The translations under genes were made by a program, and so were the position numbers. The notes under the pieces are model-generated. The model ran no database searches. It was not told the origin of the DNA and was given only the letters and a program-made list of their open reading frames with translations. Shown here one piece after another: positions 2,646 through 55,711 of a stretch of 55,925 bases of DNA. Positions within the stretch are counted from its first letter, which is position 1. Each line of letters opens with the position of its first letter. The DNA comes from a virus (lineage: Duplodnaviria; Caudoviricetes): positions 1-55,925 of IMG/VR virus record IMGVR_UViG_3300027967_000009. One strand, 5' to 3'.

Positions 2646-2725
2646 ATTAATAGGCTGCGCCAACAGCCTATCAACCGCCTTAGCGCCAACTAAGGCAACA
2701 TAACTAAAACTGCGAGGAAATAACT

Positions 2726-2848
2726 ATGTCTAATGCACAATTTAGCACATTGAGATCAATGCCACTAGCAAAACTAATTTTGCTACCTTTATTTATTCGT
2801 GAAGACTTAGCGAGTAGATACCGTTTTTTACAGCAATTTAATAAGTGA
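2726..2848 (+). CDS. Small 40-aa ORF (MSNAQFSTLRSMPLAKLILLPLFIREDLASRYRFLQQFNK)
   Basis: GAGG RBS, structured leader, downstream terminator; below ORF-track cutoff. Confidence 0.5.
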   Translation: MSNAQFSTLRSMPLAKLILLPLFIREDLASRYRFLQQFNK

Positions 2849-2900
2849 ATAAATTCATTCTTTCAAATACGGACATCAAAACGTAACTATGTTAGCGCTT

Positions 2901-2927
2901 AAACCGACTTGTTCTAGTCGGTTTTTT
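2901..2927 (+). terminator. Rho-independent terminator
   Basis: AAACCGACT-loop-AGTCGGTTT followed by T run. Confidence 0.8.
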
Positions 2928-2937
2928 ATTGTTACTT

Positions 2938-2990
2938 TTTTACACACGCGTGTGTAAAATGCTTGACTTACACACGCGTGTGTATATAAT
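2938..2990 (+). promoter_or_regulatory. hicAB promoter with two palindromic operators
   Basis: TTGACT 2963-2968 and TATAAT 2985-2990; TACACACGCGTGTGTA at 2941-2956 and 2969-2984. Confidence 0.85.
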
Positions 2991-3018
2991 AAGGGTATAA
3001 GTTGATTAGGGAGGTGGA

Positions 3019-3201
3019 ATGAATAGTAAAGATTTAATCAAACAACTTAAAAAAGCCGGTTGCACAATGGTTCGGGAAGGTAAAGGCTCTCACCAAATAT
3101 GGGAGTCACCAATATCAAAAACACGATTTACCGTCCCCCACCCAAAACGCAATCTTCCGAAAGGAACAATTAAGGGCATATTAAAACAAGCGGGGCTTTA
3201 G
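3019..3201 (+). CDS. hicA: HicA toxin (mRNA interferase)
   Basis: 60 aa, GKGSH and TVPHPK..LPKGT motifs. Confidence 0.92.
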   Translation: MNSKDLIKQLKKAGCTMVREGKGSHQIWESPISKTRFTVPHPKRNLPKGTIKGILKQAGL

Positions 3202-3275
3202 CCCCCTTGCTTTCACAACTAATAATAAAAAAAACTGGTGGAAGAAAAAACTCGTCCAAACAGGAGAAAACAGAA

Positions 3276-3704
3276 ATGTATATATCAGTAGGTTTAGAAA
3301 TTGGCAATGAAGATGACGCGATCGGTATTGTTGTTCCTGCTCTGAATATAGATGGCTACAGTTGCTATTCAGCAGCTGACAGCGAACAAGATATTATCCC
3401 TAACACCAAAGAAGCACTGGCTTTATTGTTAGAAGATATCGCACAAAACAAACCAGAGTTAATTGCCCAAATCGAAGATTATGGTATTCGCCATTATCAA
3501 CAGCAAAGCGACTATGAAGACTTTAATAATTGGAGTATGGTCGAATTTGATTTAGCGCCCTATTTGGGCAAACAAAAACGTATTAACTTGTCGATGTCAG
3601 AAGGACTGATCCAAACTATCGACACCGTTGTTAACGCTCATGATGAATACCGTGACAGAAGTCACTTTTTAGAAGTCGCTGCACGTCACGAATTAACCGC
3701 TTAA
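3276..3704 (+). CDS. hicB: HicB antitoxin
   Basis: IVVP..CYSAAD N-domain, C-terminal RHH (RINLSM..RSHFL); start moved to ATG 3276 after AGGAG. Confidence 0.9.
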   Translation: MYISVGLEIGNEDDAIGIVVPALNIDGYSCYSAADSEQDIIPNTKEALALLLEDIAQNKPELIAQIEDYGIRHYQQQSDYEDFNNWSMVEFDLAPYLGKQKRINLSMSEGLIQTIDTVVNAHDEYRDRSHFLEVAARHELTA

Positions 3705-3728
3705 GCGAAAAAAAACACTATTCATTCC

Positions 3729-3753
3729 AGCCACCTTCGGGTGGCTTTTTTTT
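3729..3753 (+). terminator. Rho-independent terminator
   Basis: AGCCACC-TTCG-GGTGGCT plus T run. Confidence 0.9.
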
Positions 3754-3791
3754 GGCAAAGAATACCCCAAAGTGATGCGTATTATCAGAAT

Positions 3792-3817
3792 GCCCGGTAA
3801 CTTAACCGGGCTTTTTT
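3792..3817 (+). terminator. Second tandem terminator
   Basis: GCCCGGT..ACCGGGC plus T run. Confidence 0.75.
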
Positions 3818-3876
3818 ATGCAAACTTTATGATCATAAACTACACTTGAAACACTTCTCTACAGTTTTGGTGCATC

Positions 3877-4512
3877 ATGTATCGTGACGAAATAAGCCCT
3901 GAAATGAGGCTCTTTAGCCCATCTGGTGAAAGACTATATTGTACTGCTGACGAAAGAGCTAGATTTCTTGATGCAGCTCAAGACGAAGATCCAATAAATA
4001 GAATGTTTTGCCAAGTTCTTCATTATACCGGTTGTCGGCCGCGTGAAGCGATAGAGCTGGAATATGAGCGAATACTCATTGATGATTGCTCTATTGTATT
4101 TCGCTGCTTAAAGAAACGTAAAACTGATAATCAAGGCAGAATTAAACAACCACAATATAGAAGTGTACCTGTACCAAAACTATTAATTGAAAACCTAGAT
4201 TTAGTTTTTGGCGTTCGCAGAGTTCAAGCAAAAAAGAAACAATTGTCTGAGCGCCTTTGGCCTAAATGTCGTACAACTTATTACCGCATGATCAAGAACG
4301 TAATGGCTAGAGCAAACATTCATGGAGAAATGGCAACGGGTAAAGGTTTGAGGCATGGCTTTGGTGTCGCAATGGTTACAGCTAAAAAGCCCTTACCTAT
4401 CCATATACTATCTAGACTAATGGGCCATTCAGACAGTAAAACCACTGAGATTTATTTACAGATAATTGGAGAAGAACAGCGGCAATTAGTGAATGATGCT
4501 TGGGATAGCTAA
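3877..4512 (+). CDS. Small tyrosine recombinase (catalytic domain only)
   Basis: TGCR, KGLRHGF, LMGHS and TEIY catalytic motifs; 211 aa. Confidence 0.9.
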   Translation: MYRDEISPEMRLFSPSGERLYCTADERARFLDAAQDEDPINRMFCQVLHYTGCRPREAIELEYERILIDDCSIVFRCLKKRKTDNQGRIKQPQYRSVPVPKLLIENLDLVFGVRRVQAKKKQLSERLWPKCRTTYYRMIKNVMARANIHGEMATGKGLRHGFGVAMVTAKKPLPIHILSRLMGHSDSKTTEIYLQIIGEEQRQLVNDAWDS

Positions 4513-4523
4513 CGACTTTTATA

Positions 4524-5153
4524 TTAACCAAGAATCAAAAGAAATAAGTCATGCCACCCGTTAAATATATAAGTTCCGCATGCCCAAAAAATAGTACCAA
4601 TAGTTATAAGGCTTAATTCAAGATTTGTAAACATGGTCCTGATTTTGTTTTTTGTCTCCTCTACTTCAATTATATTTGATAAAGATGTGGTAATAATAGC
4701 TAATTTTTTTGCTGTGTCTTGAGTCGTATGCACCCCAAGTAGCTGTATTACATTCAACACATTGGTGACAAAAGATAGGTGTGCTAGCAAATCATTTGTT
4801 TTTATATCTCCTTCATTTTTCTCTAAAGATTTGTCACTTTCAATTAACTCGTCCATTATTGTATTTACTTGCTTTAATAATTTATCTCGTTCTTCTGAAT
4901 CTAAATCTTCATTTATTGAAATGGAAAGCTCTTTAGGTAAATTCCGTACACTTGCTTCTAGCTCATGCAATTTATTATTGTTGAACGAAATATTTTGAAA
5001 ATCTTTCCCCCAAGAAAACATACTAAAAATAATAACCGCGGCGCCTCCTAACTCAACAAACTCAGGCTTGCCAAAGTACCAAGCACACACAGCTGACATC
5101 AGAAGCAAAGAACAGCAAATCACTCCGTATTTAAACTTGTATTTTTTTATCAT
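4524..5153 (-). CDS. Membrane protein with central coiled coil
   Basis: Two N-terminal and one C-terminal hydrophobic segments; very AT-rich. Confidence 0.7.
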   Translation of the reverse strand: MIKKYKFKYGVICCSLLLMSAVCAWYFGKPEFVELGGAAVIIFSMFSWGKDFQNISFNNNKLHELEASVRNLPKELSISINEDLDSEERDKLLKQVNTIMDELIESDKSLEKNEGDIKTNDLLAHLSFVTNVLNVIQLLGVHTTQDTAKKLAIITTSLSNIIEVEETKNKIRTMFTNLELSLITIGTIFWACGTYIFNGWHDLFLLILG

Positions 5154-5338
5154 TTTACATCCTTATATTTAGATTTTTTATTACCCAGTTCTTTTAACCA
5201 GGCTGCAACTGATTTGCCATCTTCTTCAGCTGCTTTTTCCCACGCTTCCTTTTGTGGCACATCTAAACGCATCTCAAAACGAGTTGTTGGTGTTTTCTTT
5301 TCTGGCCTGCCACGAGGTTTTTTCTTATTTTCAATCAT
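5150..5338 (-). CDS. Small ribbon-helix-helix-like DNA-binding protein
   Basis: PRGRP hook, TRFEMRL strand, AAEEDGKSVAAW helices. Confidence 0.7.
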   Translation of the reverse strand: MIENKKKPRGRPEKKTPTTRFEMRLDVPQKEAWEKAAEEDGKSVAAWLKELGNKKSKYKDVK

Positions 5339-5350
5339 GGCTGCATTTTA

Positions 5351-5448
5351 GTACGTACAAAAAATAATAACAACCTCGCTACTTATCATTAAATGTACGT
5401 ACAAAAAAGTTGAATAAATTAACCAGATATATAATAATTGTACGTACA
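5351..5448. promoter_or_regulatory. Three GTACGTAC palindromic operators in a divergent promoter region
   Basis: Copies at 5351-5358, 5394-5403 (TGTACGTACA) and 5439-5448 (TGTACGTACA). Confidence 0.7.
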
Positions 5449-5469
5449 TTAAATAAAGGTATGTTTTAA

Positions 5470-5772
5470 ATGATTCTTAATAAGCGCGACATTCGTAGCC
5501 TAATACTTAATCCTGACATGAAAGAAACTATCAAACGAATGATGCTTTCTGATAATCAGATTGACACGCTCAAATTCATCAGCAGTAAAGGTGTAACTAG
5601 TTCTGAATTGGCTATGCATCAACAAACGTCAGTACAAGGTGCATCGCAACTACTTAAGAATATCTACAGCAAAGGTTACATGCTAAGAAAAGAATTAAAG
5701 TCTAAATCTGGTGGTGTTGAATTTGCTTACTGGGTGAAAGATGAATACATGGAATTTTTAACAAATATCTAA
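5470..5772 (+). CDS. Winged-helix HTH protein
   Basis: TSSELAMHQQTSVQGASQLLKNIYSKGYM pattern. Confidence 0.7.
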   Translation: MILNKRDIRSLILNPDMKETIKRMMLSDNQIDTLKFISSKGVTSSELAMHQQTSVQGASQLLKNIYSKGYMLRKELKSKSGGVEFAYWVKDEYMEFLTNI

Positions 5773-5802
5773 ACAGAATAACCCGTTGATTAGGGAATTA
5801 AC

Positions 5803-6036
5803 ATGAATTTAGAGAATGTAGTCGCGATAGGAAAAATGATGCTCGTAGTCGTTATTGGCTTGCCGTGGATTATGGGCGTTGTTCTTTTTTCTACTTCTTG
5901 GTTTGGTGACGGACTTTCATCAGGCAACCAATCTAAATTACTTAGAAAGCAACAAGAATTAATTGAAGAATGCGAAAGCAACCTGCCTAGAAATCAACAT
6001 TGTGTACTAGTGGCACAAGTAATCGAAACAGAATAA
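5803..6036 (+). CDS. Small membrane-anchored hypothetical protein
   Basis: N-terminal hydrophobic segment, C-terminal CE..LPR.Q.C; RBS present. Confidence 0.7.
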   Translation: MNLENVVAIGKMMLVVVIGLPWIMGVVLFSTSWFGDGLSSGNQSKLLRKQQELIEECESNLPRNQHCVLVAQVIETE

Positions 6037-6054
6037 CCCGAAGGACTAGTAAAT

Positions 6055-6381
6055 ATGAATAGCCAGTTTAGAAGTTATGTGACAGATAGAGCTTTCAACC
6101 TGAGTTTGTCTAAAGGGCAAATCCATCAATTACAATGCGTAATCAATGTCGATTATGATTCCGCAGTATTAGATAGCCGCTTCATGTGTCACTTACAGGC
6201 GCTACAGCGTCGAGGCTTAGTTATCCATACGCCAACTAAAAACGATAACTTGAAAGCGGCCTACGCAAGAAGAAATAAAGAACGCGCGTGGAAAGCTACT
6301 AAGGCCGGAGAGCTGGCTTACCAATTACTGATTGAGGCTGGCTTAATAGTTTTAACTGGTGAAAAAGCAGTTAATGAGTAG
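6055..6381 (+). CDS. Hypothetical protein, possible winged helix
   Basis: AAGGA RBS; LQRRGLV..ATKAG pattern. Confidence 0.65.
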   Translation: MNSQFRSYVTDRAFNLSLSKGQIHQLQCVINVDYDSAVLDSRFMCHLQALQRRGLVIHTPTKNDNLKAAYARRNKERAWKATKAGELAYQLLIEAGLIVLTGEKAVNE

Positions 6382-6417
6382 ATTTTTGCAACCGAATAAC
6401 CCGTTGATAGGAAGATT

Positions 6418-36952: not shown

Positions 36953-37177
36953 TTAAAAACTCTCTGGCTGTGCTACAGCGCGCACAGCAGCCATAAAGCC
37001 TTTTTGTAAATCCGTTTTAGCTACAGCAACCCATCGTTGATCTAACTGTTTATTACTTTGTAGCTCCTCGATTAAAACTCCAACCTCTTCGGCTTTCGCT
37101 TTAACTGCGTTCATAGCATCAATCTCAGCTTGACTCAAATCACGGTAGCCTTTAATTTTCTTGTGTTGATTATCCAT
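36953..37177 (-). CDS. acb2: Cassette 5: Acb2-family anti-CBASS cyclic nucleotide sponge
   Basis: [23 protein letters not shown]...RW.A..KTD.Q.G.MA..RA.AQP.SF matches the recalled Acb2 signature; GAGG RBS before ATG 37177. Confidence 0.88.
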
Positions 37178-37216
37178 TGTATTTCCTCTTTCTTTGATTA
37201 AGTTGCCAAGCAAACC

Positions 37217-37292
37217 GCCTAACAACGCGTTTAAATTTGATTGCTACAGTTGCTACGCGCCTTGCGCAACAACTTAACGCAAATGGTTAGTT
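37217..37292 (+). repeat. attC site 5
   Basis: GCCTAAC-AACGCGTTTAAATTTGATTGC...GCAACAACTTAACGCAAATG-GTTAGTT. Confidence 0.85.
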
Positions 37293-44211: not shown

Positions 44212-44240
44212 TTTTTATTTGAATTATGTGGAGGTTGGTC

Positions 44241-47200
44241 ATGAAAAAACTAACCTTACAACAATTTTATCAAGACAAATTTAGAGGTGACGCCACACTT
44301 TTAATGGCTCACCCTGAAGCATTTAATCAATTGTCTGCTGAGGCAGATAATGCCTATGTGGTTTGGTCTGATATTTGTAACGACATTGACCCAAGCAGAA
44401 TGGGCGGTAAAAACAGTGATAAGTTCACTGGTAAAGTGCCTGTTTCAAACACTAAATACAAAGGCCGTGCGGCTGTTTATAGTAACCTACGTAGCTCGGA
44501 CGATAATACCTTTGAATACCCCACGGTTAACTTTGTATTAAAAGGTAATAACGTTGGTGGTTGGTCTGGTCTGTCTTTGTTAGTAAAACTATACAAAGAA
44601 CACAAGGGTACTATTACTGACAATGAACGACTTAAATGGCAGCGCGAGAGCGAGGCTAAAAAGAAACAATTACTTGCAAAACAAAGCGCAGCAAAGCAAG
44701 AAGGCGAACGCAAAGAAAAACGAAAACACGAATTAAATCAACAGTATAGTGCACTTTTTGATGTTTCACCAAAAGAAGATGGCAGCCAGAGTTACTTAGT
44801 TAAGAAAAAAATAGCTGAGGTGGTTCAATACATAGATATTCGTCGCTGTGTTGAGTTTGATGATGTATATAGCTTAGGTAGAAAAGGCCAAGAGTTTTTA
44901 GCGATTCGCTTTATCGATATTGACGGTAACTATGTTGGTCTTCAACGAATATATGAAGATGGCGCCAAGCTCAACACACCAGGCTTTGATTTTAGCAACG
45001 GTGCACACTGTGTTATTGGTGACATTGATGCTGCAGACGAAAACTATATTTACGCCGGTGAGGGTTTTGCTACTTGTGCAAGCGCTATGCTTGCTATGCA
45101 CAACCATAAAATTGCTAATAATCGCAAAAAAACAGCAGTTATCATAGGTATCAACTCAAACAATTTAAAGAAATGTTTGGCTCTTTTTAAAGACCAAGAA
45201 GCTGACCTAAAAATAAATCATCTGGCTGATAATGACCAATGGAAAAACCAACAAGGTAAAGGTAATGCTGGTTTATTAATTTCATGTTTTGCTGTTGATG
45301 TACTGGGTTATAAATCGGTGGTACCGCTTTTTGAAGATTACACCTTTGATGGTGTTGAATTTGATGAACGACCAACCGATTTTAATGATTTACATTGCCT
45401 TGCTGGGTTAAGTGAGGTTAGACGACAACTAAAAGCCCAGCGCAATAAATTTAAATCTTCAGGTAAAAGCCCTTTTGATAAAACTTGCCGTGAGCTGCGT
45501 TATATTGCTGCTGGTAACGATAATAAAAAGCTCTTTGAGTTAGTTAATAGAGCAATTCAACAAGGTGTCCAACTTTACCCTATACATTACGGTGTGGCTG
45601 ATATTCTTGCTTGTATTGAACACAACATTAAACACCTTTATCACCTGTTTGATAAAGTGAGTTACTTTAATGAACTAAGTGGTCGCTTAAATTGGATTAT
45701 AGGTAAACGTGTCAATAATGCTCAGGCATTCCGTTCGTTTAGTGAAGAGGTTATTTCTAAGCCTCACGTTAACTATAAAAAGTTTAATGACACCCGAATA
45801 ACGCCCGAGATTTATGCGTACATTAAAAACTTAAATGGGGCCGTAGTGGTAAGGGCGCCTATGGGTAGTGGTAAAACCCAACACTTACTTAGCCCACTGA
45901 TGGCCAAATCAGATAGAGCTGCGTATTTTGCACACCGAGTATCATTAATCGCCTCAAGTGTTAGTAATTTAAATAAACGCAGAACAACTCACGCAATTAA
46001 TAAATTTTCGCCCGTTGAACTTGAGCATGTAGATCATATCTTTGCCCAATCTTTTACTCCGGTTGGCTTGAGTAAGTCATTGCCGACTGATTTTTTAGTT
46101 CAAAACTACCAAGACTTTAAAGGTAACGGTATGGGTGTGTTTGCTCGCTCTGTTGAGCAAATGGCCATGTGTATCAACTCTATTACTAATCCATCGTTTT
46201 CACCATTATTGGAGGATTTGGATTTTTCAGCATTTGATGAAGCCGCTCAAACATTGCGCCACGTAGCAGATGGTAGTGCATGTGATAAACCTGAAATGGT
46301 TTATAACGCTATGCTTAAAACCATTAAAAACAGCAGCAAGCAGGTTATTTTGTGTGACGCTGATGCCAATGATGAAGTGATTGAAATGTGCGAACAAGCT
46401 CGCCCTGGTGAAATAATTCATGTGGTTGAGCTAGACACCGATTTCAGCGACATAAAAGTAAAATATACAGACAATGGCGATCAGGTTTTCAACCAAGTGT
46501 TTACTGCTGTCGAAAATAATGAAAAAGTTATCGTTGCTAATGACTCGGCCACCAACGGCAAATCCATGTATGAGCGACTTAAAGAGCGCTTTCCTGCTAA
46601 ACGCTTCTTGTTTATTTACCAAGACTCAAAAGGCAATGCTGATGTTGATTACTTCAACCAAAACCCTGATTTAGCGGTAAACGAGCAGCAATATGATGCT
46701 GTTATTTACTCTCCTTGTATAAGTTCTGGTGTTTCGCTTGAGTCGGGCTATTTCACTAAACATTTTGCTATTTTATGCGGCACCGTAGCACCATCTGACG
46801 CCATTCAAATGATTAGACGCGATCGCTGTGCTAAAGAATTCATTATCGGGTTTAACAAACAAAACACCACATACCCCGAAACTAAAGAAGAAATTATTAT
46901 CGGTATGATCAAAGCGGATGATATCAATCTTACGCTCGATTTATCTGAAGGCATGATGCGACTTGGCCGTATGTACACCAAATTTGATGATATGCGTATC
47001 AATGTTATTGCTAAGCAAAATAGAGCGCGGAATGACTTTGCTAATAACATGCTATTGATACTGCAAGGGGATAAATATCAGCTTGAGCGCATTGCTGAAA
47101 ATGAAGTGGAAAAAGAAATAGGTAATGCACAACGTAACCTTGGTAGAGAAATAGCCAAAGCGCGTGATTTAGAGCTTCAATTAAATCAGGAAACACCCGA

Positions 47201-48110
47201 ACCAGAAACAGCTGAGCGACTTCGTAAAGAAGATTGCGTGAGTGAAGAAGAACGGGCGCAACTAAAACGTTATGATATTGAAACACAGTTATGTTCACAA
47301 GTTACCGCTGACACTATCGCGTTTAATGATGACCGCGGCATAAGTAAAGTAAAAAACTTTGAACTACTGAAAGGTAATATCAGCCAAGCCAATGCTTACG
47401 ATGTTTCTGAAATTGCCACCAATATTTCCTTTAGTGCTCGAGAACGAAAAACCGCAAAAATGAATCTACTGCACCAGGTGTTTTCAATACTAGGTGTTGA
47501 TAAGGCGTCTGGTGAAGGGGAGTTTACTGGCGAGCAAATGCGCCTAGTTCGTGATTCGCTGTTAGGTAGCGAAGACGATATTATGCTGTATAACACTACT
47601 CGTATAGGTGGCTACATTCACCCTAAAACGCGCAAGAAAAAATGTGAGACAACCTTTGTTAAAAATATTTTATCTAAATGCGGCCTCGAGCTTGGCTCAC
47701 GTTTAGAAGGTAAAGCGAGAAAACGCATATCATTTATCAAGCCTGGCGTATGGGATGTTATGCAATCCTACTTTAAAGCCCGTCAAGAACAAAGCATTTC
47801 GTCACTTGAGCCGTTGCAATATGATACTGATGCGGAGGTACTTAAGCGATCGGGTTTAACGATTGATATAAACCTTATTAATAAAGCCGATCACCAAAGT
47901 ATTACTTACGCAAAAATGGCTGGAAACGCTTTAACGGCGCTGGTTAACGAGGCTATCGAAGGATTGAATATTAGCTTTGAAAATGCGGTAAGCATGCTTG
48001 ATGGTGAAACTATCACTGATATTCTAAATGATGACATGCCAATTGGCATGTTGCGCTCATATTTCGCGACTCAAGAGAAATATGAACGGCAATTAATGGC
48101 TGTTTGTTAG
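44241..48110 (+). CDS. repA: N15-type RepA primase-helicase
   Basis: TOPRIM (EGFAT, ADND, TDFNDLH), APMGSGKT, DE motif; GGAGG RBS before ATG 44241. Confidence 0.92.
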   Translation: MKKLTLQQFYQDKFRGDATLLMAHPEAFNQLSAEADNAYVVWSDICNDIDPSRMGGKNSDKFTGKVPVSNTKYKGRAAVYSNLRSSDDNTFEYPTVNFVLKGNNVGGWSGLSLLVKLYKEHKGTITDNERLKWQRESEAKKKQLLAKQSAAKQEGERKEKRKHELNQQYSALFDVSPKEDGSQSYLVKKKIAEVVQYIDIRRCVEFDDVYSLGRKGQEFLAIRFIDIDGNYVGLQRIYEDGAKLNTPGFDFSNGAHCVIGDIDAADENYIYAGEGFATCASAMLAMHNHKIANNRKKTAVIIGINSNNLKKCLALFKDQEADLKINHLADNDQWKNQQGKGNAGLLISCFAVDVLGYKSVVPLFEDYTFDGVEFDERPTDFNDLHCLAGLSEVRRQLKAQRNKFKSSGKSPFDKTCRELRYIAAGNDNKKLFELVNRAIQQGVQLYPIHYGVADILACIEHNIKHLYHLFDKVSYFNELSGRLNWIIGKRVNNAQAFRSFSEEVISKPHVNYKKFNDTRITPEIYAYIKNLNGAVVVRAPMGSGKTQHLLSPLMAKSDRAAYFAHRVSLIASSVSNLNKRRTTHAINKFSPVELEHVDHIFAQSFTPVGLSKSLPTDFLVQNYQDFKGNGMGVFARSVEQMAMCINSITNPSFSPLLEDLDFSAFDEAAQTLRHVADGSACDKPEMVYNAMLKTIKNSSKQVILCDADANDEVIEMCEQARPGEIIHVVELDTDFSDIKVKYTDNGDQVFNQVFTAVENNEKVIVANDSATNGKSMYERLKERFPAKRFLFIYQDSKGNADVDYFNQNPDLAVNEQQYDAVIYSPCISSGVSLESGYFTKHFAILCGTVAPSDAIQMIRRDRCAKEFIIGFNKQNTTYPETKEEIIIGMIKADDINLTLDLSEGMMRLGRMYTKFDDMRINVIAKQNRARNDFANNMLLILQGDKYQLERIAENEVEKEIGNAQRNLGREIAKARDLELQLNQETPEPETAERLRKEDCVSEEERAQLKRYDIETQLCSQVTADTIAFNDDRGISKVKNFELLKGNISQANAYDVSEIATNISFSARERKTAKMNLLHQVFSILGVDKASGEGEFTGEQMRLVRDSLLGSEDDIMLYNTTRIGGYIHPKTRKKKCETTFVKNILSKCGLELGSRLEGKARKRISFIKPGVWDVMQSYFKARQEQSISSLEPLQYDTDAEVLKRSGLTIDINLINKADHQSITYAKMAGNALTALVNEAIEGLNISFENAVSMLDGETITDILNDDMPIGMLRSYFATQEKYERQLMAVC

Positions 48111-48574: not shown

Positions 48575-51421
48575 TTAGTTAACCAAACTTATCTGTGATT
48601 TTGGGGCAAAAAGTGGTGCATAAAAACTATCTTTCAATGCCTCGTAATGGCTGTTATAAACCATTTCAGCTTCACGCATAGCATTAGTGTACTGCTCATG
48701 TTTTCCATGCTCAAAATAGATATTAGCAAGCTGTAAGTAGATGTTCATCTTGTCAGGCGAGTGTGTTTTTTCTAAGTCACGCCACACAAACAAGGCCTCA
48801 GCCTTTTTGGCCAACTCAATACCTAATTCACTTTGTGCGTTAATTTGCCTTTCTATTAAAGCAATATCCAACATAACCCTAGCATTATCATCAGCCACAA
48901 AGCCTTGCTGTCCTTTTCTTAATGCTAACACCTCGGCAATACTAGCCAGTACCTTATCGTCATTATAATTGGCAAAGTCATAGTAAAGTTTAACCAACTG
49001 CAACTCATAGGGCTCAACCATATCGTTATAATCTTCATTGGTTTTCAATAAAGTGCTCAGCAGTGTATCAGCAACGGGTTTTAACAACGGGTTAGTGCGG
49101 TCAAAGCCGGTAAACTCTAAATAATTTATAAGCAATACACGAATAGAGTCTAAACCGACAAAGCCATATCGGTCAGCGCTTTTATTATAATTTTCAAAAT
49201 AGGTTATCGCTTTATGAACCTCTCGCTCAGCGCTGGCTATATCCCCTTGGTAAAGGTAGCTTACACCTAACAAGTAACTGTTAAGCATCCACCCGTCAAA
49301 TTTTCTCCAACCATAATAATCGGTAGCGGCTTTAATACTTTGCGTGGCTAGCGGTAAGTCAAGCAAGCGATTAACCACATATTGGTTTCGCCACGACTCC
49401 ATTACTAATTCATTATCATTGCCAGGTAACTCACTGGCCATGTCAATAGTTTGTTTGGCTGCGTCTAACGCTTCATTATAATCACCAAGCTCATATAAAA
49501 CCCGAGACTTTAAATTAATGCTTTTAATCAACAGTTCGTTACCACTAACACTGTCAGGTATGTGATGTATTGCTTGTTCAATACTGCTCTGTGCATCGGT
49601 TAATACTGCAGTTAAATACCTGTTATGATCGTCTTCGCTTACACCATCGCCTGGGCTAATGTTTGAACCATCGTAGTAATAAAAATACTCGCGGGCTTGG
49701 TAATATTTTAATAAACCCTGTTGGTCCAACGCTAAATCCTGCCAATACAGTTTTTCTATTTGTTTTAACGTACTAAGTGCTTTGTCATCATCGCCATAAA
49801 CCTCAGAAATATATTTAACATCGGTATCAAATAGCGCTAAGTAACCCAAAGCATGCTCAACAGTAACAAAGCCATTTTTTTCTAACTCAAGCATAAAAGG
49901 TTGGGCAGCAGCTTGCGCTTGTTCAACCCTATCATTAAAAGATAACGCCTTAGCATACAACGCAGAAACAAGGGGTAAGTATTTGTTTTTGGCAACCGAA
50001 ATCGCTTTTTTATACAGCGAAATAGCAGCAGCAACTGATAACGGATCACCTTTTTGCATGGCAGCATTCGCGATAGCCATCGCGTGCTGATATACCAGTG
50101 CTTTATCAGCCTCAGTGTTATCAATAATACTCTTTAGATTTGTTAACGCGTCAAATTGTTCGTTTTGAACGTAATGAGCGTAATTATTAGCTATCTGCGT
50201 TAAAAATGTGTTGTTGTTATGCTGCTGCTGAATATAACCCGAAGACGTATAAGAAATAACAGAAAAAGTAATACAACTTACCGCCCCTGCAGTAGCTAAT
50301 GCGGCATGAACAGGCTTTAAAAAAAGATGCTTATAAATACGATAAAAGTAATTGTTATTATGTGATTTCACATAACCTAGCTCTAAAAAAACCGACAAAT
50401 CATGACTGAATTCAGCCATTGTTTTATAACGTTTTTCTTTATTTGGCTCAGTAGCTTTTAATAAAATACTATCAAGCTCTTTTATCCAGCGTTTATATTT
50501 TTTCTCATCGGGTGAAAAACTAATATTGTCGCTTGGTAAATTTTTTCTGACATCAAAGGGTGGTTTCAACCTGGTAAGCAGTTCGTATAAAACCAAAGCA
50601 ATTGAATAAACATCGCTACCAAAGGTTAAAGGCTCATTGTTTTTAAGCTCAGGGCTTGAATAATCACAACTAAACACTTCGGCATACTCGTAATTTTTTT
50701 CATCAACTTTCTTTTTAGCACGTTGGGCAATACCAAAATCACAAAGTAAAGGGTCCCCTTGCTTATCCATCAAAATATTTGAAGGTTTAATGTCAGCATG
50801 TATATAAGAATAACTTGAGTGGGCAAAATGTAATGCATCGCAAACTTTTAAAACTGCTTGGATGGTGTTTTTAATGTTTGAAAAAATCAAACTATTTAAT
50901 AAACCGTCAGTAATATTGCCGTAGTCAACATAATCCATCACGTAAAAAGGCAGTTTTAAATTGTTATAATCAATAACGCCAGCATCAAAAACACGCGTGA
51001 TATATTTATGCTTGAGCTGCGCCATAATGTTGGCTTCGCGATCTATTAAGTCATAATCATAAACATTAATTAAATGTGGCTTAACCACTTTAACCACGGC
51101 CTTTTGATTAACCAGTAAACCATCTAACCGCTCAGCATAAAAAATATGGCCCATACCACCAGAGGTAATATAGTTCATTAGGGTGTAGTTGCCCACGTCT
51201 TTACCCAGCAGTGTTTTGGGGTCAAAAGAGCTCTCAACAAAAGAACTAAAGCTAACAGAATAGGCATCGGGTGACATTTCAACATCACTAGCCACCTCAA
51301 TCAAATTCAGCACATCGTTTTTTAACGTTTCATCATTGCCACATAACCTATCAAGCTTTTCATCTCTTAATCTGGGTGGCGTATTCTCAATAACGTTCCA
51401 TATCTCGAATAAATCAGCCAT
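48575..51421 (-). CDS. Membrane Hanks-type Ser/Thr kinase with TPR-like C-terminal domain
   Basis: GGMG, VVK, HADIKPSN, DFG, SPE, DVYS; one TM segment; long helical repeat region. Confidence 0.92.
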   Translation of the reverse strand: MADLFEIWNVIENTPPRLRDEKLDRLCGNDETLKNDVLNLIEVASDVEMSPDAYSVSFSSFVESSFDPKTLLGKDVGNYTLMNYITSGGMGHIFYAERLDGLLVNQKAVVKVVKPHLINVYDYDLIDREANIMAQLKHKYITRVFDAGVIDYNNLKLPFYVMDYVDYGNITDGLLNSLIFSNIKNTIQAVLKVCDALHFAHSSYSYIHADIKPSNILMDKQGDPLLCDFGIAQRAKKKVDEKNYEYAEVFSCDYSSPELKNNEPLTFGSDVYSIALVLYELLTRLKPPFDVRKNLPSDNISFSPDEKKYKRWIKELDSILLKATEPNKEKRYKTMAEFSHDLSVFLELGYVKSHNNNYFYRIYKHLFLKPVHAALATAGAVSCITFSVISYTSSGYIQQQHNNNTFLTQIANNYAHYVQNEQFDALTNLKSIIDNTEADKALVYQHAMAIANAAMQKGDPLSVAAAISLYKKAISVAKNKYLPLVSALYAKALSFNDRVEQAQAAAQPFMLELEKNGFVTVEHALGYLALFDTDVKYISEVYGDDDKALSTLKQIEKLYWQDLALDQQGLLKYYQAREYFYYYDGSNISPGDGVSEDDHNRYLTAVLTDAQSSIEQAIHHIPDSVSGNELLIKSINLKSRVLYELGDYNEALDAAKQTIDMASELPGNDNELVMESWRNQYVVNRLLDLPLATQSIKAATDYYGWRKFDGWMLNSYLLGVSYLYQGDIASAEREVHKAITYFENYNKSADRYGFVGLDSIRVLLINYLEFTGFDRTNPLLKPVADTLLSTLLKTNEDYNDMVEPYELQLVKLYYDFANYNDDKVLASIAEVLALRKGQQGFVADDNARVMLDIALIERQINAQSELGIELAKKAEALFVWRDLEKTHSPDKMNIYLQLANIYFEHGKHEQYTNAMREAEMVYNSHYEALKDSFYAPLFAPKSQISLVN

Positions 51422-52028
51422 TTTTACTACTCAACAAATGCGATTTAATAACGGCATCAGCAAACTCTAGGTAGCGATAAAAGGTGCTTTCACTTATACC
51501 GAGTATCACTGTTATTTTTTGAACATCAACCCCCCAAAGCCTATATAAACTAAAGGCAATAGACTGCTGTTTTGCTTTGCTTTCTAAGACTGAAATAGCT
51601 TCATCTAGCATTAAAAAAGAGTGTTCACTGTTTAATGAGTTACTGTCTGACAAATACGCGTTTGGGCAGGCACCTATTTGAACTCTATTATCAGCCCCAT
51701 GCCTGCTCAACTTTCTGGCTTCATCAACCAAGGTTGAGTACACCATTTTTCTCAATAAAATAAACAAATCGTTAATGGAGTGAAAATAAATATTATTTTG
51801 TTTGGTAAGTAGCTTAATAGAAACCGTTTGAGCAATATCGTTAACACCAAACAGTTTTAACGGAGTAGCAACCACTTTACCTTTGCTAAATTCTAACGCT
51901 GAAAATTTAGTAATAAATGGCTGTAAATAAATAACCAAATCATTTCTAGCTTGTTGGCAACCAGCGTTCCATTGCTCAATTAAATAGGTAAGCTTTTCAA
52001 CATCAACATCAACATCAACATCAAGCAT
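51414..52028 (-). CDS. ECF sigma factor, kinase-associated type
   Basis: LT.LI.QW..G...A...L, LVD.ARK, LDEA...L, LGISEST..R...A. Confidence 0.82.
   Translation of the reverse strand: MLDVDVDVDVEKLTYLIEQWNAGCQQARNDLVIYLQPFITKFSALEFSKGKVVATPLKLFGVNDIAQTVSIKLLTKQNNIYFHSINDLFILLRKMVYSTLVDEARKLSRHGADNRVQIGACPNAYLSDSNSLNSEHSFLMLDEAISVLESKAKQQSIAFSLYRLWGVDVQKITVILGISESTFYRYLEFADAVIKSHLLSSKNG
51999..52022. repeat. (AACATC)4 microsatellite at the sigma N-terminus
   Basis: Encodes DVDVDVDV. Confidence 0.75.
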
Positions 52029-52731
52029 TGTTAGCCCCCTTTAATTCAAATAATTGCTTTGCTGTTAATACGGTTATTTCATTTGAACATCGTAACGTGT
52101 CTATCCACACTTGGTTTTGCTTAACCACAACGTTCTGGCTGTTTGTATGACCATGAACAGTAAGATCAATATTGCTGATGGCTTGTTCTAAAGACTTTGG
52201 GCGGTTAAATTTTTCACTAGACCAAAACAATAAATCTTGCTGATCGTCAGGTAAATCAGAGTGGATAATATCATGCCAATCATCGGGCGCTTGGGCGTGG
52301 GTTAACCCAATATTCCCATAAGGTGTTTCAATGGTAATGGCTAAATGCATTTTGGCATAAACAATCGCCATAAAAAAAGTAAGTTGTTTGTCGGTGTTTT
52401 CTAGCTGTAGCAACCATTGACCACCAATGTTAAGCAAGGTGTCAATCAACTCAGGGTTAACCCTAAGATCTAAAAGCATGTCTTCGTGATTGCCCATCAC
52501 CGCAAAGAACCAAGGTTCAAGCAATAAATGTAAACACTCAGCTGACTTGTCTCCTCGGTTAATCAAATCACCTACCGAAAACACCCGGTCACCGTTATCA
52601 GCATTAAAACCAGCGCAAGCCAATGACTTCATCAGCACATCGTAATGGCCATGAACATCGCCAATAAAGTAATCCGTTCCTTTTTCATTAACACTAAAGT
52701 GCTGATGATAATTAATCCGTTTTTTTGGCAT
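52021..52731 (-). CDS. PPP-family Ser/Thr phosphatase (lambda NinI/PphA-like)
   Basis: GDVHG, VGDLINRG, GNHE, HGHT, IDT. Confidence 0.92.
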   Translation of the reverse strand: MPKKRINYHQHFSVNEKGTDYFIGDVHGHYDVLMKSLACAGFNADNGDRVFSVGDLINRGDKSAECLHLLLEPWFFAVMGNHEDMLLDLRVNPELIDTLLNIGGQWLLQLENTDKQLTFFMAIVYAKMHLAITIETPYGNIGLTHAQAPDDWHDIIHSDLPDDQQDLLFWSSEKFNRPKSLEQAISNIDLTVHGHTNSQNVVVKQNQVWIDTLRCSNEITVLTAKQLFELKGANNA

Positions 52732-52782
52732 AACAAACAAAAGTAAAAAGTGATGCTTTATAGTACACCAAAGCTAAAAATG

Positions 52783-52811
52783 AAAAAAGCGGCAATAGTT
52801 GCCGCTTTTTT
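52783..52811. terminator. Bidirectional terminator after the peptide gene
   Basis: AAAAAAGCGGCAA-TAG-TTGCCGCTTTTTT. Confidence 0.88.
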
Positions 52812-52827
52812 GTAGTAGAAACAAAGC

Positions 52828-53040
52828 CTAGATGCGCACTTTGCCGCGACTAGAGCCTGTTTTTTTGTATTCAATTCTAACTTTGCCGCGACTAGAACCA
52901 ATTTCTTTATAATCAATTCTAACTTTACCACGACTAGAACCAACTTCTTGGCTAGTAACAGTGTTGTTATCAACTACGGGTGTAGCGTCTACAGTTGCTG
53001 GTGTTAAAGATAAAACTGCCGCTAAAAGTGTGCTTAACAT
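52828..53040 (-). CDS. Exported pre-peptide with three GSSRGKVRI repeats
   Basis: AGGGA RBS, hydrophobic signal-like N-terminus, 14-aa (42-bp) period, third copy ends at the stop codon. Confidence 0.8.
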   Translation of the reverse strand: MLSTLLAAVLSLTPATVDATPVVDNNTVTSQEVGSSRGKVRIDYKEIGSSRGKVRIEYKKTGSSRGKVRI

Positions 53041-53115
53041 ATTGTATTCCCTATAAGTGTCAAAAATTTGTTGAACACTTATAGAGCAATAATTAAGCCA
53101 AGGTTGGTTTAGTGT

Positions 53116-53700
53116 TTATATTCCCTTATGTTTTTTCATATCCTCATACAGCTTCATAAAAGCTAACTTAGCCAACGCTTGGCCACTGTTACGCTCAATG
53201 GTGAAATCAGCATTCTCATAGCCACTACTAGTATGAATTCTTAGATCACAGTTTTTAGCAGCAATCATTTTTTTAAAAAGTTCAAACGGTATAGCGATAG
53301 TGCTTTCACTTTCAGTAAAAATACTTTTAGAAATAGTATTCCAGCCATCATGACTTAAACGAGTTCCGTAAGTATCGAATCGCTCTACTTCTCCATTTAT
53401 TTTTATACTTACGCCATCAATACTTGTATAAATAGCTCGGCCGTTAGTATCTGAACCGTACACCATACTTAGCACAACAGTGTCAGGCATGGATTCATTA
53501 TAATAAGCCCCCATACGAACAGAATTATTAAGCATCCCACCATCATTTAGATAAGTAGGGGTAACAACAACTTGGTAGTTACCCTCAAAATCTTTTGATG
53601 AAGTGAGTTGGCCAACACCAGTGGCCTTATCAAGCGAATCAGCAACGCTGGCACAGCCAATAACAGTTAATGCAAGTAAAAGTATGAGTATTTTTTTCAT
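53116..53700 (-). CDS. Lipoprotein
   Basis: MKK-hydrophobic-VIGC lipobox. Confidence 0.8.
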   Translation of the reverse strand: MKKILILLLALTVIGCASVADSLDKATGVGQLTSSKDFEGNYQVVVTPTYLNDGGMLNNSVRMGAYYNESMPDTVVLSMVYGSDTNGRAIYTSIDGVSIKINGEVERFDTYGTRLSHDGWNTISKSIFTESESTIAIPFELFKKMIAAKNCDLRIHTSSGYENADFTIERNSGQALAKLAFMKLYEDMKKHKGI

Positions 53701-53755: not shown

Positions 53756-55711
53756 TTACAACTTTTTCACCTGAATTTTATTATGTGGCCCTTTAAAGCT
53801 AGCTAAGCCAGCATCATTCAAAGCAATTCTTTCAGCATCCTTTTCATTTTTAGCGTAAAGAGTGTCTTGAAAATAAGGTCCTGACTTATAAGGAATGGTT
53901 ACTTTAAACTCAAACAACTCACCAACAAATAAAGCATAACCTGTCTTCATGGCTAATATTTTATCGTCAGAGCGCAGCGTAAACATGGCTGTTTTATTAC
54001 CTAACGATACCGATATTTTCCATTTATCATCACCTAAGTCATGAGCTTTAATGTGGGGTTTTTCCGATTTTTTAGTTTGAGGGCTTTCTTTTACCTCAGC
54101 TTTTTCTACTACCGCTTTAACTTGCTCAACCGGCTCATCTTCAATGTCTTCTTCATGTTGAACAGATAAAGGTTCACCAGGGGAAACTAAATCACCAATA
54201 GCCGCTAAGTAGTTTTTAATAGTGCCTCGGTAAACCCCAGTTTCCCGCGTCAGCATTGATTGGTTTATTTCAATAAACGGGTTTTTCTCAACCTCATTTT
54301 TAACCCATGTGTGAAGTTTAATTGCTGCATCACCTCGAGCTAAACCTTCCATTATATCGTCTAATTCGCACAGCTCTTGCCAGCGTTCGTTAACCGTTGC
54401 CGTTGGCTCATAATCAGCAACAAAGTTATTTAATTTGTACGGTTTATAGTGTGCTTGGGCGTTAGTGTCATTGTGAACAAATAACTCATAAAAAAAGATA
54501 TCTTCGTCTTTATCGCGCCAGCGAGGATCGGTTAAATAATATTTTTGGTAACAAATTCGGCCATATATGCCGCGCGTATCTTTTGGTACTCTACGCTTAT
54601 CAACAAAGAAATCTTTGGCAAAATCGCTTAGGTGAGGTGCCACTTTTCCCTTTATCACCTCGTTATCAGTTCGATGATCTTCACCTTCGCTTTCAGAAAT
54701 AATTTTTTGAGTAATAGGGTGATTACGAAGAACACCAAAAGCATTTAGAAAAACATCATTATCAACTAAGCAATAAATCAAATTACTTTGCTCAGCCTCT
54801 TCATCAGTACGTTTTTTAGCTTGCCCTGAAAATAGTAATTGATGCTTGCCTTTAGCCTTGAAATAGCCAGTTTTTAATATCTCAATAGGGCGCCTACCAG
54901 TAGCAGCACATAACGCAAAAACCAAAGGAGCTATGCCACTTACCAAACCATTAAATGTAGCATCAGGGTGAGATAAAATTGATAGAATGCGCTCCATATA
55001 AGAAGGGTAATCAACATACACGACAGTGGTTTTCTTTTTATTTAGACTGCTTTTAGCCTTATTGCTTAGCACGGCTTTATCAGCGTGTGGCAGCACCAGG
55101 TTAACTATTAACTCATGATCAACCTTTAAAGCTTTAAGCTCTCCAAACAAGGGCTTAGCCTCATTAACAGCCTTAATTAACGTGGTTTTTGCTGCCATAG
55201 TATTATCCTTATCACCCAGAGCAGTAATTAAACTCTCGTATTCAGGGTATTCTTCGGCTAGCTTCTTTAATTTTCTAGTTAACGATTTACTAAAATCAAG
55301 CAAATCAACTTTTTCCATCAGCTCATGGCTTGCTGCAAGGGCGTCTAATAAGTTTTTTTTAGCTATTCTAGCTTCAGTTGGTTCTAAACCAGATAAACCA
55401 AGCAAAAAACCACTATGTGCTGGGTATTTTTTGGTTAATCGACCCAATTCACTTTCATATCTATGATGAATGCCGCTTATATTTTGAATAGCTTTTCTAA
55501 CCTTTGTTAAGTAGCTTCTAGCTGTGCTCAGTGTTATTTTTGAATCCGCCCGCTTCCTGCCGTCACCATATAATTTGTTAATAAAAACACTAGCAAGGCT
55601 TTGAAATTTCTTTGTTTTCTTATGCTGTGGAATGTCGCTATTCTCTATACCATTAAACTCAATAACTAACCATTCAATTAATTCCTTCAACTTTATTTTT
55701 TGTGTAGACAT
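53756..55711 (-). CDS. telN: Protelomerase (telomere resolvase, TelN-like)
   Basis: TGRR..EI, FSGQAK, KD.R.IY, H.D...Q.HY; adjacent to the hairpin end. Confidence 0.95.
   Translation of the reverse strand: MSTQKIKLKELIEWLVIEFNGIENSDIPQHKKTKKFQSLASVFINKLYGDGRKRADSKITLSTARSYLTKVRKAIQNISGIHHRYESELGRLTKKYPAHSGFLLGLSGLEPTEARIAKKNLLDALAASHELMEKVDLLDFSKSLTRKLKKLAEEYPEYESLITALGDKDNTMAAKTTLIKAVNEAKPLFGELKALKVDHELIVNLVLPHADKAVLSNKAKSSLNKKKTTVVYVDYPSYMERILSILSHPDATFNGLVSGIAPLVFALCAATGRRPIEILKTGYFKAKGKHQLLFSGQAKKRTDEEAEQSNLIYCLVDNDVFLNAFGVLRNHPITQKIISESEGEDHRTDNEVIKGKVAPHLSDFAKDFFVDKRRVPKDTRGIYGRICYQKYYLTDPRWRDKDEDIFFYELFVHNDTNAQAHYKPYKLNNFVADYEPTATVNERWQELCELDDIMEGLARGDAAIKLHTWVKNEVEKNPFIEINQSMLTRETGVYRGTIKNYLAAIGDLVSPGEPLSVQHEEDIEDEPVEQVKAVVEKAEVKESPQTKKSEKPHIKAHDLGDDKWKISVSLGNKTAMFTLRSDDKILAMKTGYALFVGELFEFKVTIPYKSGPYFQDTLYAKNEKDAERIALNDAGLASFKGPHNKIQVKKL

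Follow-up and report, generated by a model that had tools for sequence, protein, structure and literature searches.

The virus record IMGVR_UViG_3300027967_000009 (Duplodnaviria; Caudoviricetes), the whole of which (55,925 bp, linear and rated complete) was analysed here and is called the window below, carries a small gene for a protein of 70 residues, with three identical copies of a basic, nine-residue unit, in front of genes for a Ser/Thr phosphatase, a sigma factor of the extracytoplasmic function (ECF) type and a transmembrane Hanks-type receptor kinase. Homologues of the same layout and a pattern of purely synonymous changes show that the peptide open reading frame (ORF) represents a genuine gene, whose units are kept identical by purifying selection. 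The gene belongs to a previously undescribed peptide family with chromosomal members in Colwelliaceae, from which telomere phages and further mobile elements have taken up the peptide gene along with its promoter. Our reading, which we put forward tentatively and with somewhat less than even confidence, is that the multi-copy peptide is exported and serves as the signal that feeds the kinase-sigma switch encoded next to it. The features of the locus are listed in Table 1.

As to the gene itself, an earlier note, made from the letters of the window, had described three identical units with DYKE and EYKK between them, and these are indeed found in the ORF, starting at residues 34, 48 and 62, in the order V-GSSRGKVRI-DYKE-I-GSSRGKVRI-EYKK-T-GSSRGKVRI, with the stop codon placed right after the third unit (positions in the note are given on the plus strand, and the gene reads on the minus strand). 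The spacers are of 4-5 residues, and the residues flanking the units differ, V, I or T preceding them and DYKE versus EYKK separating them. In the DNA, 2.7 copies of the repeat follow one another at a period of 42 nt and match at 87%, and three 20-nt copies are included. Compared pairwise, the 27-nt stretches encoding the units show 2, 5, and 7 differences, every one of them synonymous, and when as many changes are placed at random, the peptide is preserved in 6.3%, 0.1% and 0 of 50,000 trials, respectively. The same is seen on a larger scale, the 143 unit copies in the 31 family genes with repeats containing 161 extra synonymous codon variants; the count of zero amino-acid variants within these units is partly by construction, as the units were taken as the maximal shared stretch. 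The proposals of the note that protein identity is kept despite synonymous changes in the DNA, and that the units are under purifying selection, are thus both borne out.

Relatives of the peptide are few in general collections. A word-indexed search of 5.8 billion proteins returned only two, P0002 and P0003 (73% and 56% identity to the window's peptide), both of 70 aa and of the same layout, and a profile search of 1.84 billion representatives returned 19 hits; 16 of these were examined, leaving out three long ones (P0005, P0010, and P0020), and 14 are family members of 58-100 aa, with the same leader and 2-5 repeats. P0019 and P0022, the other two, proved to be repeat proteins from outside the family and were rejected, as were a chance match to a plasmid by tblastn (E = 3) and a chance match in the viral_contigs collection, to L002, a high-G+C, actinophage-like contig. 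The tblastn search of the phage collection returned nothing, no longer or fused forms of the peptide are present among 5705 candidates, the ESM Atlas offered sub-threshold leads only (0.79 and 0.78), nothing in Pfam, NCBIfam, PHROGs or PADLOC scored above threshold, and the literature searches found no description of the family. The window's peptide is also recorded on a contig of 111,753 bp, about twice the length of the window.

The family becomes apparent in the chromosomes of the hosts. When species-representative genomes were scanned for the leader pattern, 27 loci emerged, under the titles Colwellia, Thalassotalea, Cognaticolwellia, Pseudocolwellia, Colwelliaceae or Alteromonadaceae metagenome-assembled genomes, and 44 of the 201 genomes sampled from the hosts' GTDB family have a match, mostly with one locus per genome. 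The proteins start with a conserved leader (MLSSIILS...), followed by a short linker, neutral or acidic, and by a series of 2-8 unit copies that are all identical; acidic spacers are present between them in some cases and missing in others. The units are basic, of 7-10 aa, end in Ile, Val or Leu, and are lineage-specific, being identical within a gene and different between species. In 22 of the 24 complete host proteins the protein ends exactly where a unit ends, as is typical of peptide pheromone precursors. Alternatively, the product could stay uncut, as a basic array, located in the periplasm or on the cell surface, that binds, for example, lipopolysaccharide (LPS), exopolysaccharide or nucleic acid, unit identity being due to concerted evolution along with selection on each unit. 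The peptide is predicted to be disordered (mean pLDDT of 0.24 in the Atlas model), as are many polyvalent binders, and no protease is linked to the peptide gene in the phage-type cassettes. However, the spacers are optional and their length ranges from 0 to 11 residues, both inside single genes and from gene to gene, suggesting that it is the short unit that is selected, and not a fixed fold or spacing, and the range in copy number, along with the exact ends noted above, also argues against an intact array, which we consider unlikely.

The chromosomal neighborhood is highly uniform. The peptide gene follows a gene for a sensor of 1548 aa, in which Reg_prop/Y_Y_Y, PAS, GGDEF, and EAL domains are combined (27/27 loci), the sensor is preceded by an M16 peptidase (24/27), and fadJ-fadI follow the peptide gene on the other strand. 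As the entire neighborhood is syntenic across the family, adjacency alone is no proof of function. This applies to the M16 peptidase, rejected here as the processing enzyme: it has no hydrophobic N-terminal signal, a fact that would also fit an uncut array, its adjacency may be mere synteny, and the link is weak. A highly conserved ORF of 33-38 aa (MINLIKSLF...IAA.IEIKE...WWS) is present 6-52 nt after the chromosomal peptide gene at all of the 24 assessable loci (e.g., L006, 10304-10411); it has no family match and was not found in the phage cassettes. Some 20-60 nt past this ORF, at host loci such as L007, L010, and L016, a hairpin recurs (GCTAC-A[CA]GGA..-GTAGC, with GGA in the loop) that, by eye, resembles the binding hairpins of the CsrA/RsmA type.

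As to export, the leader of the window's peptide has a hydrophobic stretch of 11-12 residues, followed by [ST]-P and a site of the V-x-A type (V-D-A), past which the first 14 residues carry zero positive charge. Judged by inspection, it fits Sec export by established rules, with the h-region and the V-D-A site for signal peptidase I (SPase I) present and the n-region devoid of Lys or Arg. These properties bear on the suggestions of the note that the Ser-Ser-Arg core might be a kinase substrate or resemble the core of a peptide of the ribosomally synthesized, post-translationally modified kind (RiPP). Ser-Ser-Arg does occur in the window's unit, and the kinase domain is weakly like the kinase domains of lanthipeptide synthetases (E 7e-8, far below the cut-off). 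However, the Ser pair is not conserved, a relative's unit being GAKRGKVRV, and Ser and Thr are altogether absent from the units of P0003, as they are from those of several host proteins. The kinase domain is predicted to be cytoplasmic, on the opposite side of the membrane from a peptide with an export-type leader, and neither a modifying enzyme (lyase or cyclase) nor a protease or an exporter is encoded in the five cassettes, nor is there a match above threshold to any RiPP family. Both suggestions are thus disfavored, and of all the explanations considered here they are the least probable.

Each unit has a charge of +3, and many of the spacers are acidic. Such charged units with acidic spacers resemble multi-copy precursors of antimicrobial peptides, and the product might accordingly be a source of antimicrobial or membrane-perturbing peptides, the kinase-sigma pair sensing the perturbation or protecting the producer. 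Indeed, a related pair, EcfP/PknT of Vibrio parahaemolyticus, is described as responding to the cationic lipopeptide polymyxin (PMC8999054). The units, however, are hydrophilic and, with 7-10 residues, short for membrane activity, immunity or export genes were not found in the phage, and the host locus is a single-copy part of the core genome, unlike bacteriocin islands, making such an activity quite improbable.

Homologous kinase loci without such peptides were looked for, as the note had proposed, and all five assessable loci with a full-length orthologous kinase have the peptide gene directly upstream. Full-length orthologues, at 31-54% identity, are encoded on a metagenome contig (L005) and in three of the 201 sampled genomes, G049, G091, and G007; in 31 other genomes with kinase hits these cover the kinase domain only. 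At the five assessable loci (the window, L005, L054, L051, and L056) the order is always peptide gene, hairpin, phosphatase, sigma factor, kinase; three further kinase contigs are cut off upstream and stand outside this count. The backbones differ: the cassettes of the window and of L005 are flanked by repA and telN, the cassette of L054 follows telN and has a RepA-like gene downstream, this contig apparently being assembled across a telomere, and L056, the most distant of the cassette loci, has ParA- and resolvase-like neighbors. In L051, the sigma gene is in two pieces (62 aa and 69 aa), and the peptide has no exact 5-mer repeat.

A number of further observations can be made at these loci. 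L051 (G049:C240, 6098-6521 and 7321-7584) has the appearance of a decaying cassette, its peptide gene having a 10-codon N-terminal duplication and degenerate repeats, and a second, intact sigma gene and a C-terminal fragment of a kinase are found nearby. Contigs C240, C108, and C148 of the 6.5-Mb G049 assembly contain three to four separate kinase copies (43-48% identity to the window's), which could mean that a single host contains several related elements, or that the assembly is a mixed one. The contig L054 (G091; 2110-4071, -, and 4456-6417, +) is an inverted duplication, with telN, peptide, phosphatase, and sigma genes mirrored around position ~4263, as if the assembly ran across a hairpin telomere or a head-to-head dimer.

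It is possible to explain the same data by mimicry of a host pathway, the phage copy agonizing or jamming the host receptor of the chromosomal peptide, with the kinase-sigma module merely co-inherited and sensing, for example, envelope stress. The phage gene retains a leader of the host type and a sigma-54 promoter of the host type, at the same spacing, and the chromosomal family works without this kinase. Two genomes, G007 and G049, possess both a chromosomal and a cassette copy (with the query used, no chromosomal copy was found in G091). However, in both cases the units of the two copies differ within the same genome, the tight order of peptide gene and phosphatase-sigma-kinase genes is maintained at 5/5 loci in spite of kinase identities of 31-54% and of different backbones, and the second, tiny ORF of the host operon has been left behind. 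Mimicry is therefore a rather unlikely explanation, though a more probable one than either an intact array or an envelope-active peptide.

The proteins encoded downstream are of recognizable types. The genes for the phosphatase and the sigma factor, and those for the sigma factor and the kinase, overlap by 8 nt, and the likely start of the phosphatase is an ATG located 9 nt inside the listed TTG. Against TIGR02999 (Sig-70_X6), whose curated cut-off is 126, the sigma factor reaches no more than 50.5 bits; searching PDB with its sequence returned only noise, and no anti-sigma factor gene is present at the sigma-kinase pair. The kinase domain is well supported (Pkinase, 101 bits versus a cut-off of 31.7) and predicted to be cytoplasmic, followed by a single transmembrane (TM) segment. 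The C-terminal 553 residues are predicted to form an all-helical superhelix of tetratricopeptide repeats (TPR; pLDDT 86.7, pTM 0.84), with the nearest solved folds being LGN/Pins, the TPR domain of OGT, and a consensus TPR, the first two of which bind peptides; the assignment is made from the predicted fold, the Pfam TPR hits being below their cut-offs. This periplasmic part diverges faster than the kinase domain (50 versus 61%, 41 versus 54%, and 22 versus 42% identity), and it has only eight relatives in the word-indexed search. A complex prediction with TPR residues 396-948 and the presumed mature peptide (residues 20-70) scored 0.01 versus a mark of 0.32, a result that weighs neither way. 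As to a role of the module as a prophage-encoded anti-phage defence with the peptide as an accessory, the kinase domain does match the PADLOC models PD-T4-6 (E 7e-42) and mad6 (E 1e-34); however, the matches are limited to the generic kinase domain, residues 76-347, and none of the defence models picks up the sigma factor, the phosphatase, the peptide or the TPR part, so that a defence function appears very unlikely.

The control region of the peptide gene has also been conserved. The element upstream, TGGC-N7-TTGCT, with its GG and GC 10 nt apart, is of the sigma-54 type (TGGCAC-N5-TTGCW), and the five cassette genes all have it or a close variant at the same distance from the gene; at 27/27 host loci a -24/-12 element (TGGCAY-N7-GCW) is present 56-79 nt before the ATG, compared to a background of 0.007 per 120 nt in these loci. 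Counted over the window by itself, the motif is no more frequent than chance would have it (3 matches versus 2.1 expected), and the promoter call therefore rests on conservation. A hairpin rich in G+C follows the peptide gene at 5/5 cassette loci, with a T run after it in four of the five. The view of the note that the gene is a separately controlled unit with a strong terminator of its own thus agrees with a conserved promoter on one side and a 13-bp stem with a T run on the other. No Sigma54_activat domain, denoting an enhancer-binding AAA+ activator, was found in the cassette proteins or in 45 further ORFs of the phage, and so the phage copy would answer to the sigma-54 regulation of the host, a host enhancer-binding activator being the presumed driver of the promoter. 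A sigma-70-like site at 53063..53036 was taken as a chance match, since it overlaps the start codon and transcription from it would begin inside the ORF. A second sigma-54-like motif, TGGC-N7-TTGCA, is found at 5204-5219 (-), 66 nt before an ORF of 209 aa (4524-5153, -) with hydrophobic segments at its N- and C-terminus, a spacing like that at the peptide gene. Between the peptide terminator and the phosphatase gene, in the window (52741-52782) as well as in L005, L054, and L051, lies a conserved block, TTT[GA][GA]TGTA.TAT.AA, which may be the promoter of the phosphatase-sigma-kinase operon.

The inverted repeat reported in the note at the edge of the ribosome-binding site is likewise present: its arms, 53051-53060 and 53075-53084, match at 10/10 positions across a spacer of 14 nt, and on the coding strand the 3' arm extends into the ribosome site, AGGGAA, located 8 nt ahead of the ATG. 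It is the sole such site in the window (0 of 100 shuffles yield one), and it is kept in the five cassette loci, three of the 14 predicted pairs being changed on both sides, all in L056. In sigma-54 promoters the distance from the GC to the start site is usually 12 nt, and the 5' arm would therefore remain untranscribed. Thus, the repeat may be a DNA operator, or it may act as an RNA hairpin in read-through RNA only. Under the latter idea, the ribosome site is hidden in read-through RNA and not in sigma-54 transcripts, and its pairing is higher in the longer versus the shorter RNA (0.67 versus 0.35 in hosts, 0.49 versus 0.22 in cassettes). When the extra segment is shuffled, pairing is 0.55 versus 0.64 for the real one, with only 10 of the 32 loci exceeding 90% of the shuffles, and RNAalifold found no consensus structure in 24 host leaders.

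Bringing these data together, we infer a series of steps that lead from the gene through export, release, and binding to phage output. The pre-protein would be exported by Sec, and the units would act in the periplasm or outside the cell, either released as short cationic peptides or displayed as an array. There they would serve as the ligand of the periplasmic TPR sensor of the kinase, or else compete with the host's own peptide. The kinase would then phosphorylate the ECF sigma factor, the phosphatase would reset it, and sigma would drive the output of the phage, possibly via the conserved 90-aa ORF beside repA. In support of an exported signal, the order of the cassette has been kept even though kinase identity falls to 31%, backbones differ, and the lipoprotein gene upstream is not kept, and the topology of the kinase, with one TM segment and an external TPR superhelix, fits periplasmic sensing.

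A number of points weigh against it. The route of a +3 nonapeptide across the outer membrane is hard to explain, and the n-region of the leader lacks the positive charge. The promoter of the peptide gene is of the sigma-54 type, not of the ECF type, in a phage without an enhancer-binding protein, and no feedback loop between sigma and peptide is visible. A kinase, sigma factor or phosphatase like those of the phage is absent from the fetched flanks of 27/27 chromosomal loci, and in five host genomes the best kinase matches cover the kinase domain only, at 24-31% identity; it follows that the family had some other partner originally. Where the kinase-linked sigmas of Pseudoalteromonas have the Thr-rich TLQTT, the cassette sigmas show [N/S/E/D]-D, and phosphorylation may thus proceed by another mechanism than in EcfP; an alternative site could be provided by a linker rich in Ser/Thr ahead of RHG, with phosphorylation sites in the linker being described for EcfK (PMC13147305). 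Finally, the argument from co-decay of sigma and peptide depends on a single locus, L051.

The cassette might still be the first instance in Gram-negative bacteria of phage communication by a peptide ligand and a receptor kinase, using a word borrowed from a species-specific, sigma-54-controlled peptide language of Colwelliaceae, and read through the periplasmic TPR domain of the kinase, to set lysis versus lysogeny. This broader claim is decidedly more doubtful than that of an exported signal, and yet there is a real chance of a new kind of phage-host communication. Another role, that of a cytoplasmic small effector, would make the 70-aa product the output of the module, like Qtip or the small ORFs (smORFs) that inactivate repressors. 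The position between repA and telN and a size close to that of the smORFs (57-61 aa in PMC10432266) agree with this. However, chromosomal homologues exist in hosts lacking the phage, the leader is of an export type, the sigma-54 promoter is shared with the host genes, and the conserved 90-aa ORF beside repA suits such a role better, and we assign this explanation a very small probability, similar to that of a defence function.

Table 1. Features of the repA-telN locus and of the peptide gene, by position in the window.
Feature	Position	Strand	Remarks
RepA-like primase-helicase (repA)	44226..48110	+	One boundary of locus
Conserved small ORF, ~90 aa	48175..48447	-	GTG start, good ribosome site; between kinase gene and repA
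Receptor Hanks kinase, 948 aa	48575..51421	-	77-aa extension, kinase 78-350, TM ~371-389, TPR 396-948
ECF sigma factor (PF07638 type)	51414..52028	-	Sigma70_ECF 39.8 bits vs. cut-off 21.1
NinI/lambda-type Ser/Thr phosphatase (Metallophos)	52021..52740	-	phrog_246, E 5e-56
Intrinsic terminator	52783..52811	-	13-bp stem with 5 G-C pairs, 3-nt loop, then T run
Peptide gene, 70 aa	52828..53040	-	Leader ~1-19, linker 20-33, three 9-aa basic units
Unit copy 3	52831..52857	-	Residues 62-70, protein C-terminus
Unit copy 2	52873..52899	-	Residues 48-56
Unit copy 1	52915..52941	-	Residues 34-42
10-bp inverted repeat	53051..53084	-	Between promoter -12 element and ribosome site
Sigma-54-type promoter	53085..53100	-	TGGC-N7-TTGCT, GG and GC 10 nt apart; 60 nt before ATG
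Lipoprotein (phrog_7678)	53116..53700	-	Upstream of peptide gene
Protelomerase (TelN/TelK family, telN)	53756..55711	-	Other boundary of locus; convergent with repA

As to its carrier, the window is from a marine telomere (linear plasmid-like) phage, since its protelomerase resembles those of PY54, VP882, and N15-like phages (31-38% identity) and its gene content includes a RepA-like protein. It further encodes a lambda-like head and tail, ParA/SopB partition functions, a CI-type S24 repressor, and a Q antiterminator. The convergent repA and telN genes are separated by a gap of 5.6 kb that houses the peptide gene and the cassette, in agreement with the definition of such loci in Silpe et al. 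(convergent repA/telN, <=10 kb; PMC10432266), where sensory modules are reported in 274 distinct loci and where the repA-telN locus of linear plasmid phages is described as housing input modules for lysis-lysogeny that are independent of SOS. We read the cassette as a sensory module of this kind, for which a receptor kinase, a sigma factor, and a phosphatase are the building parts and the multi-copy peptide is the probable input. The lipoprotein gene upstream stands outside the conserved cassette, being missing from L005, L054, L051, and L056, and no close relatives of the lipoprotein or of the kinase were found in viral_contigs. The 90-aa ORF has been kept in L005 (52%) and L051 (27%), along with a conserved block upstream of it; it has no family match and may serve the module as its output or effector. 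Six DNA sequencing runs from marine sediment metagenomes, among them three possible sources, contain all or part of the stretch, and no RNA sequencing runs containing it are listed. Elsewhere in the window, an ORF at 36953-37225 (-) has an Acb2/Tad1 hairpin domain (E 1.3e-21) and likely encodes an anti-CBASS/Thoeris sponge, and a HicB-like antitoxin gene (3207-3704, +) and a short gene of the phage-integrase family (3877-4512, +) adjoin the partition genes.

How does the cassette compare to known systems? The design of its precursor is a familiar one, as the yeast alpha-factor and the cyanobactin precursor PatE also consist of a leader and several cores, identical or nearly so, that are set apart by short spacers, the identity of the cores being selected and synonymous positions drifting. 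Unlike in these, no dibasic sites of the Kex2 type flank the units and no modifying or processing enzymes are linked, and, unlike in the case of alpha-factor, the organisms concerned are bacteria with an outer membrane. Even if signaling should fail as an explanation, the family presents a clean natural case in which selection holds repeats identical within a gene and divergent between species, and the phage copy gives a handle on a conserved, sigma-54-driven, species-specific, multi-copy peptide gene of Colwelliaceae.

The kinase-sigma part has its counterparts in ECF43 sigma factors, which are described as activated through phosphorylation by adjacent receptor kinases (PMC8999054; PMC13147305). 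As in EcfP-PknT of Vibrio parahaemolyticus and EcfK-PknS of Xanthomonas citri, the sigma gene abuts the kinase gene without an anti-sigma factor, and PknS and PknT share the architecture of the cassette kinase (N-terminal extension, Hanks domain, one TM segment, periplasmic TPR); cellular sigma-kinase pairs of Pseudoalteromonas even have the same 8-nt gene overlap. Unlike these pairs, the cassette is phage-borne and is headed by a peptide gene and by a phosphatase whose translation is coupled to that of the sigma factor. Its sigma factor has an acidic residue at the ECF43 phospho-Thr stretch, whereas region 2.2 of ECF43 sigmas is without the acidic DAED motif and contains the phospho-acceptor Thr, and its TPR domain is of ~550 residues, versus three repeats in PknS as described in PMC13147305. 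The fetched flanks of more distant cellular ECF-kinase pairs (5 kb at two of the loci and 1.5 kb at all others) contain neither a phosphatase nor a repeat peptide. The ligand of the periplasmic TPR of such sigma-activating receptor kinases is stated to be unknown in PMC8999054 and PMC13147305, and with the cassette a candidate ligand is encoded next door; if the signal reading is true, this would be the first ligand for receptor kinases of the ECF43 type.

The sensory modules of other telomere phages, such as VqmA-Qtip of VP882 and the pairs of a transcription factor (TF) and a smORF, occupy the same place and follow a like general plan, that of an SOS-independent input combined with a regulator and a small protein (PMC10432266). 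The modules of the VP882 type rely on a one-component transcription factor, versus a sigma factor in the cassette that would be controlled by phosphorylation through a dedicated membrane sensor, and in the repA-telN modules a counter-oriented smORF triggers lysis, whereas the cassette genes are all co-oriented and the regulator is a sigma factor. The word kinase is absent from the main text of Silpe et al. (PMC10432266), and the literature searched describes no kinase-sigma module in telomere phages, though the supplementary tables of that paper might list such loci.

The closest parallel in logic is arbitrium (AimP-AimR-AimX) of the SPbeta-group Bacillus phages, in which a short secreted pre-peptide of the phage has its active part at the C-terminus and the peptides are lineage-specific (PMC11945551). 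The cassette places a putative pre-peptide of the phage, whose gene reads as a leader and a C-terminal unit, beside a TPR-containing candidate receptor that would set a transcriptional output, and its peptides are also lineage-specific. In contrast to arbitrium, the host is Gram-negative, there are several identical copies per precursor, and the peptide gene has family members in the host chromosomes and a promoter of the sigma-54 type. The arbitrium receptor is a cytoplasmic TPR transcription factor reached via Opp import, and the candidate receptor here, a Hanks kinase, spans the membrane, with its TPR domain on the outside and an output via an ECF sigma factor and a phosphatase; no transcription factor of the AimR type is encoded beside the peptide gene, its neighbors being the phosphatase, the sigma factor, and the transmembrane kinase, and there is no sequence relation between the systems. 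The known cases of signaling by phages involve small molecules of the host, or peptides in Bacillus phages (PMC11945551; PMC10432266), and the cassette thus bears on whether such signals also exist as a phage's own peptides in Gram-negative bacteria. Overall, we rate the module as a combination of known kinds, phage peptide signaling and kinase-sigma switches of the ECF43 type, in which the peptide family and the presence of a kinase-sigma module in a telomere phage are undescribed in the libraries and literature searched, the proposed logic being like that of arbitrium, though in a Gram-negative host and with entirely different parts.

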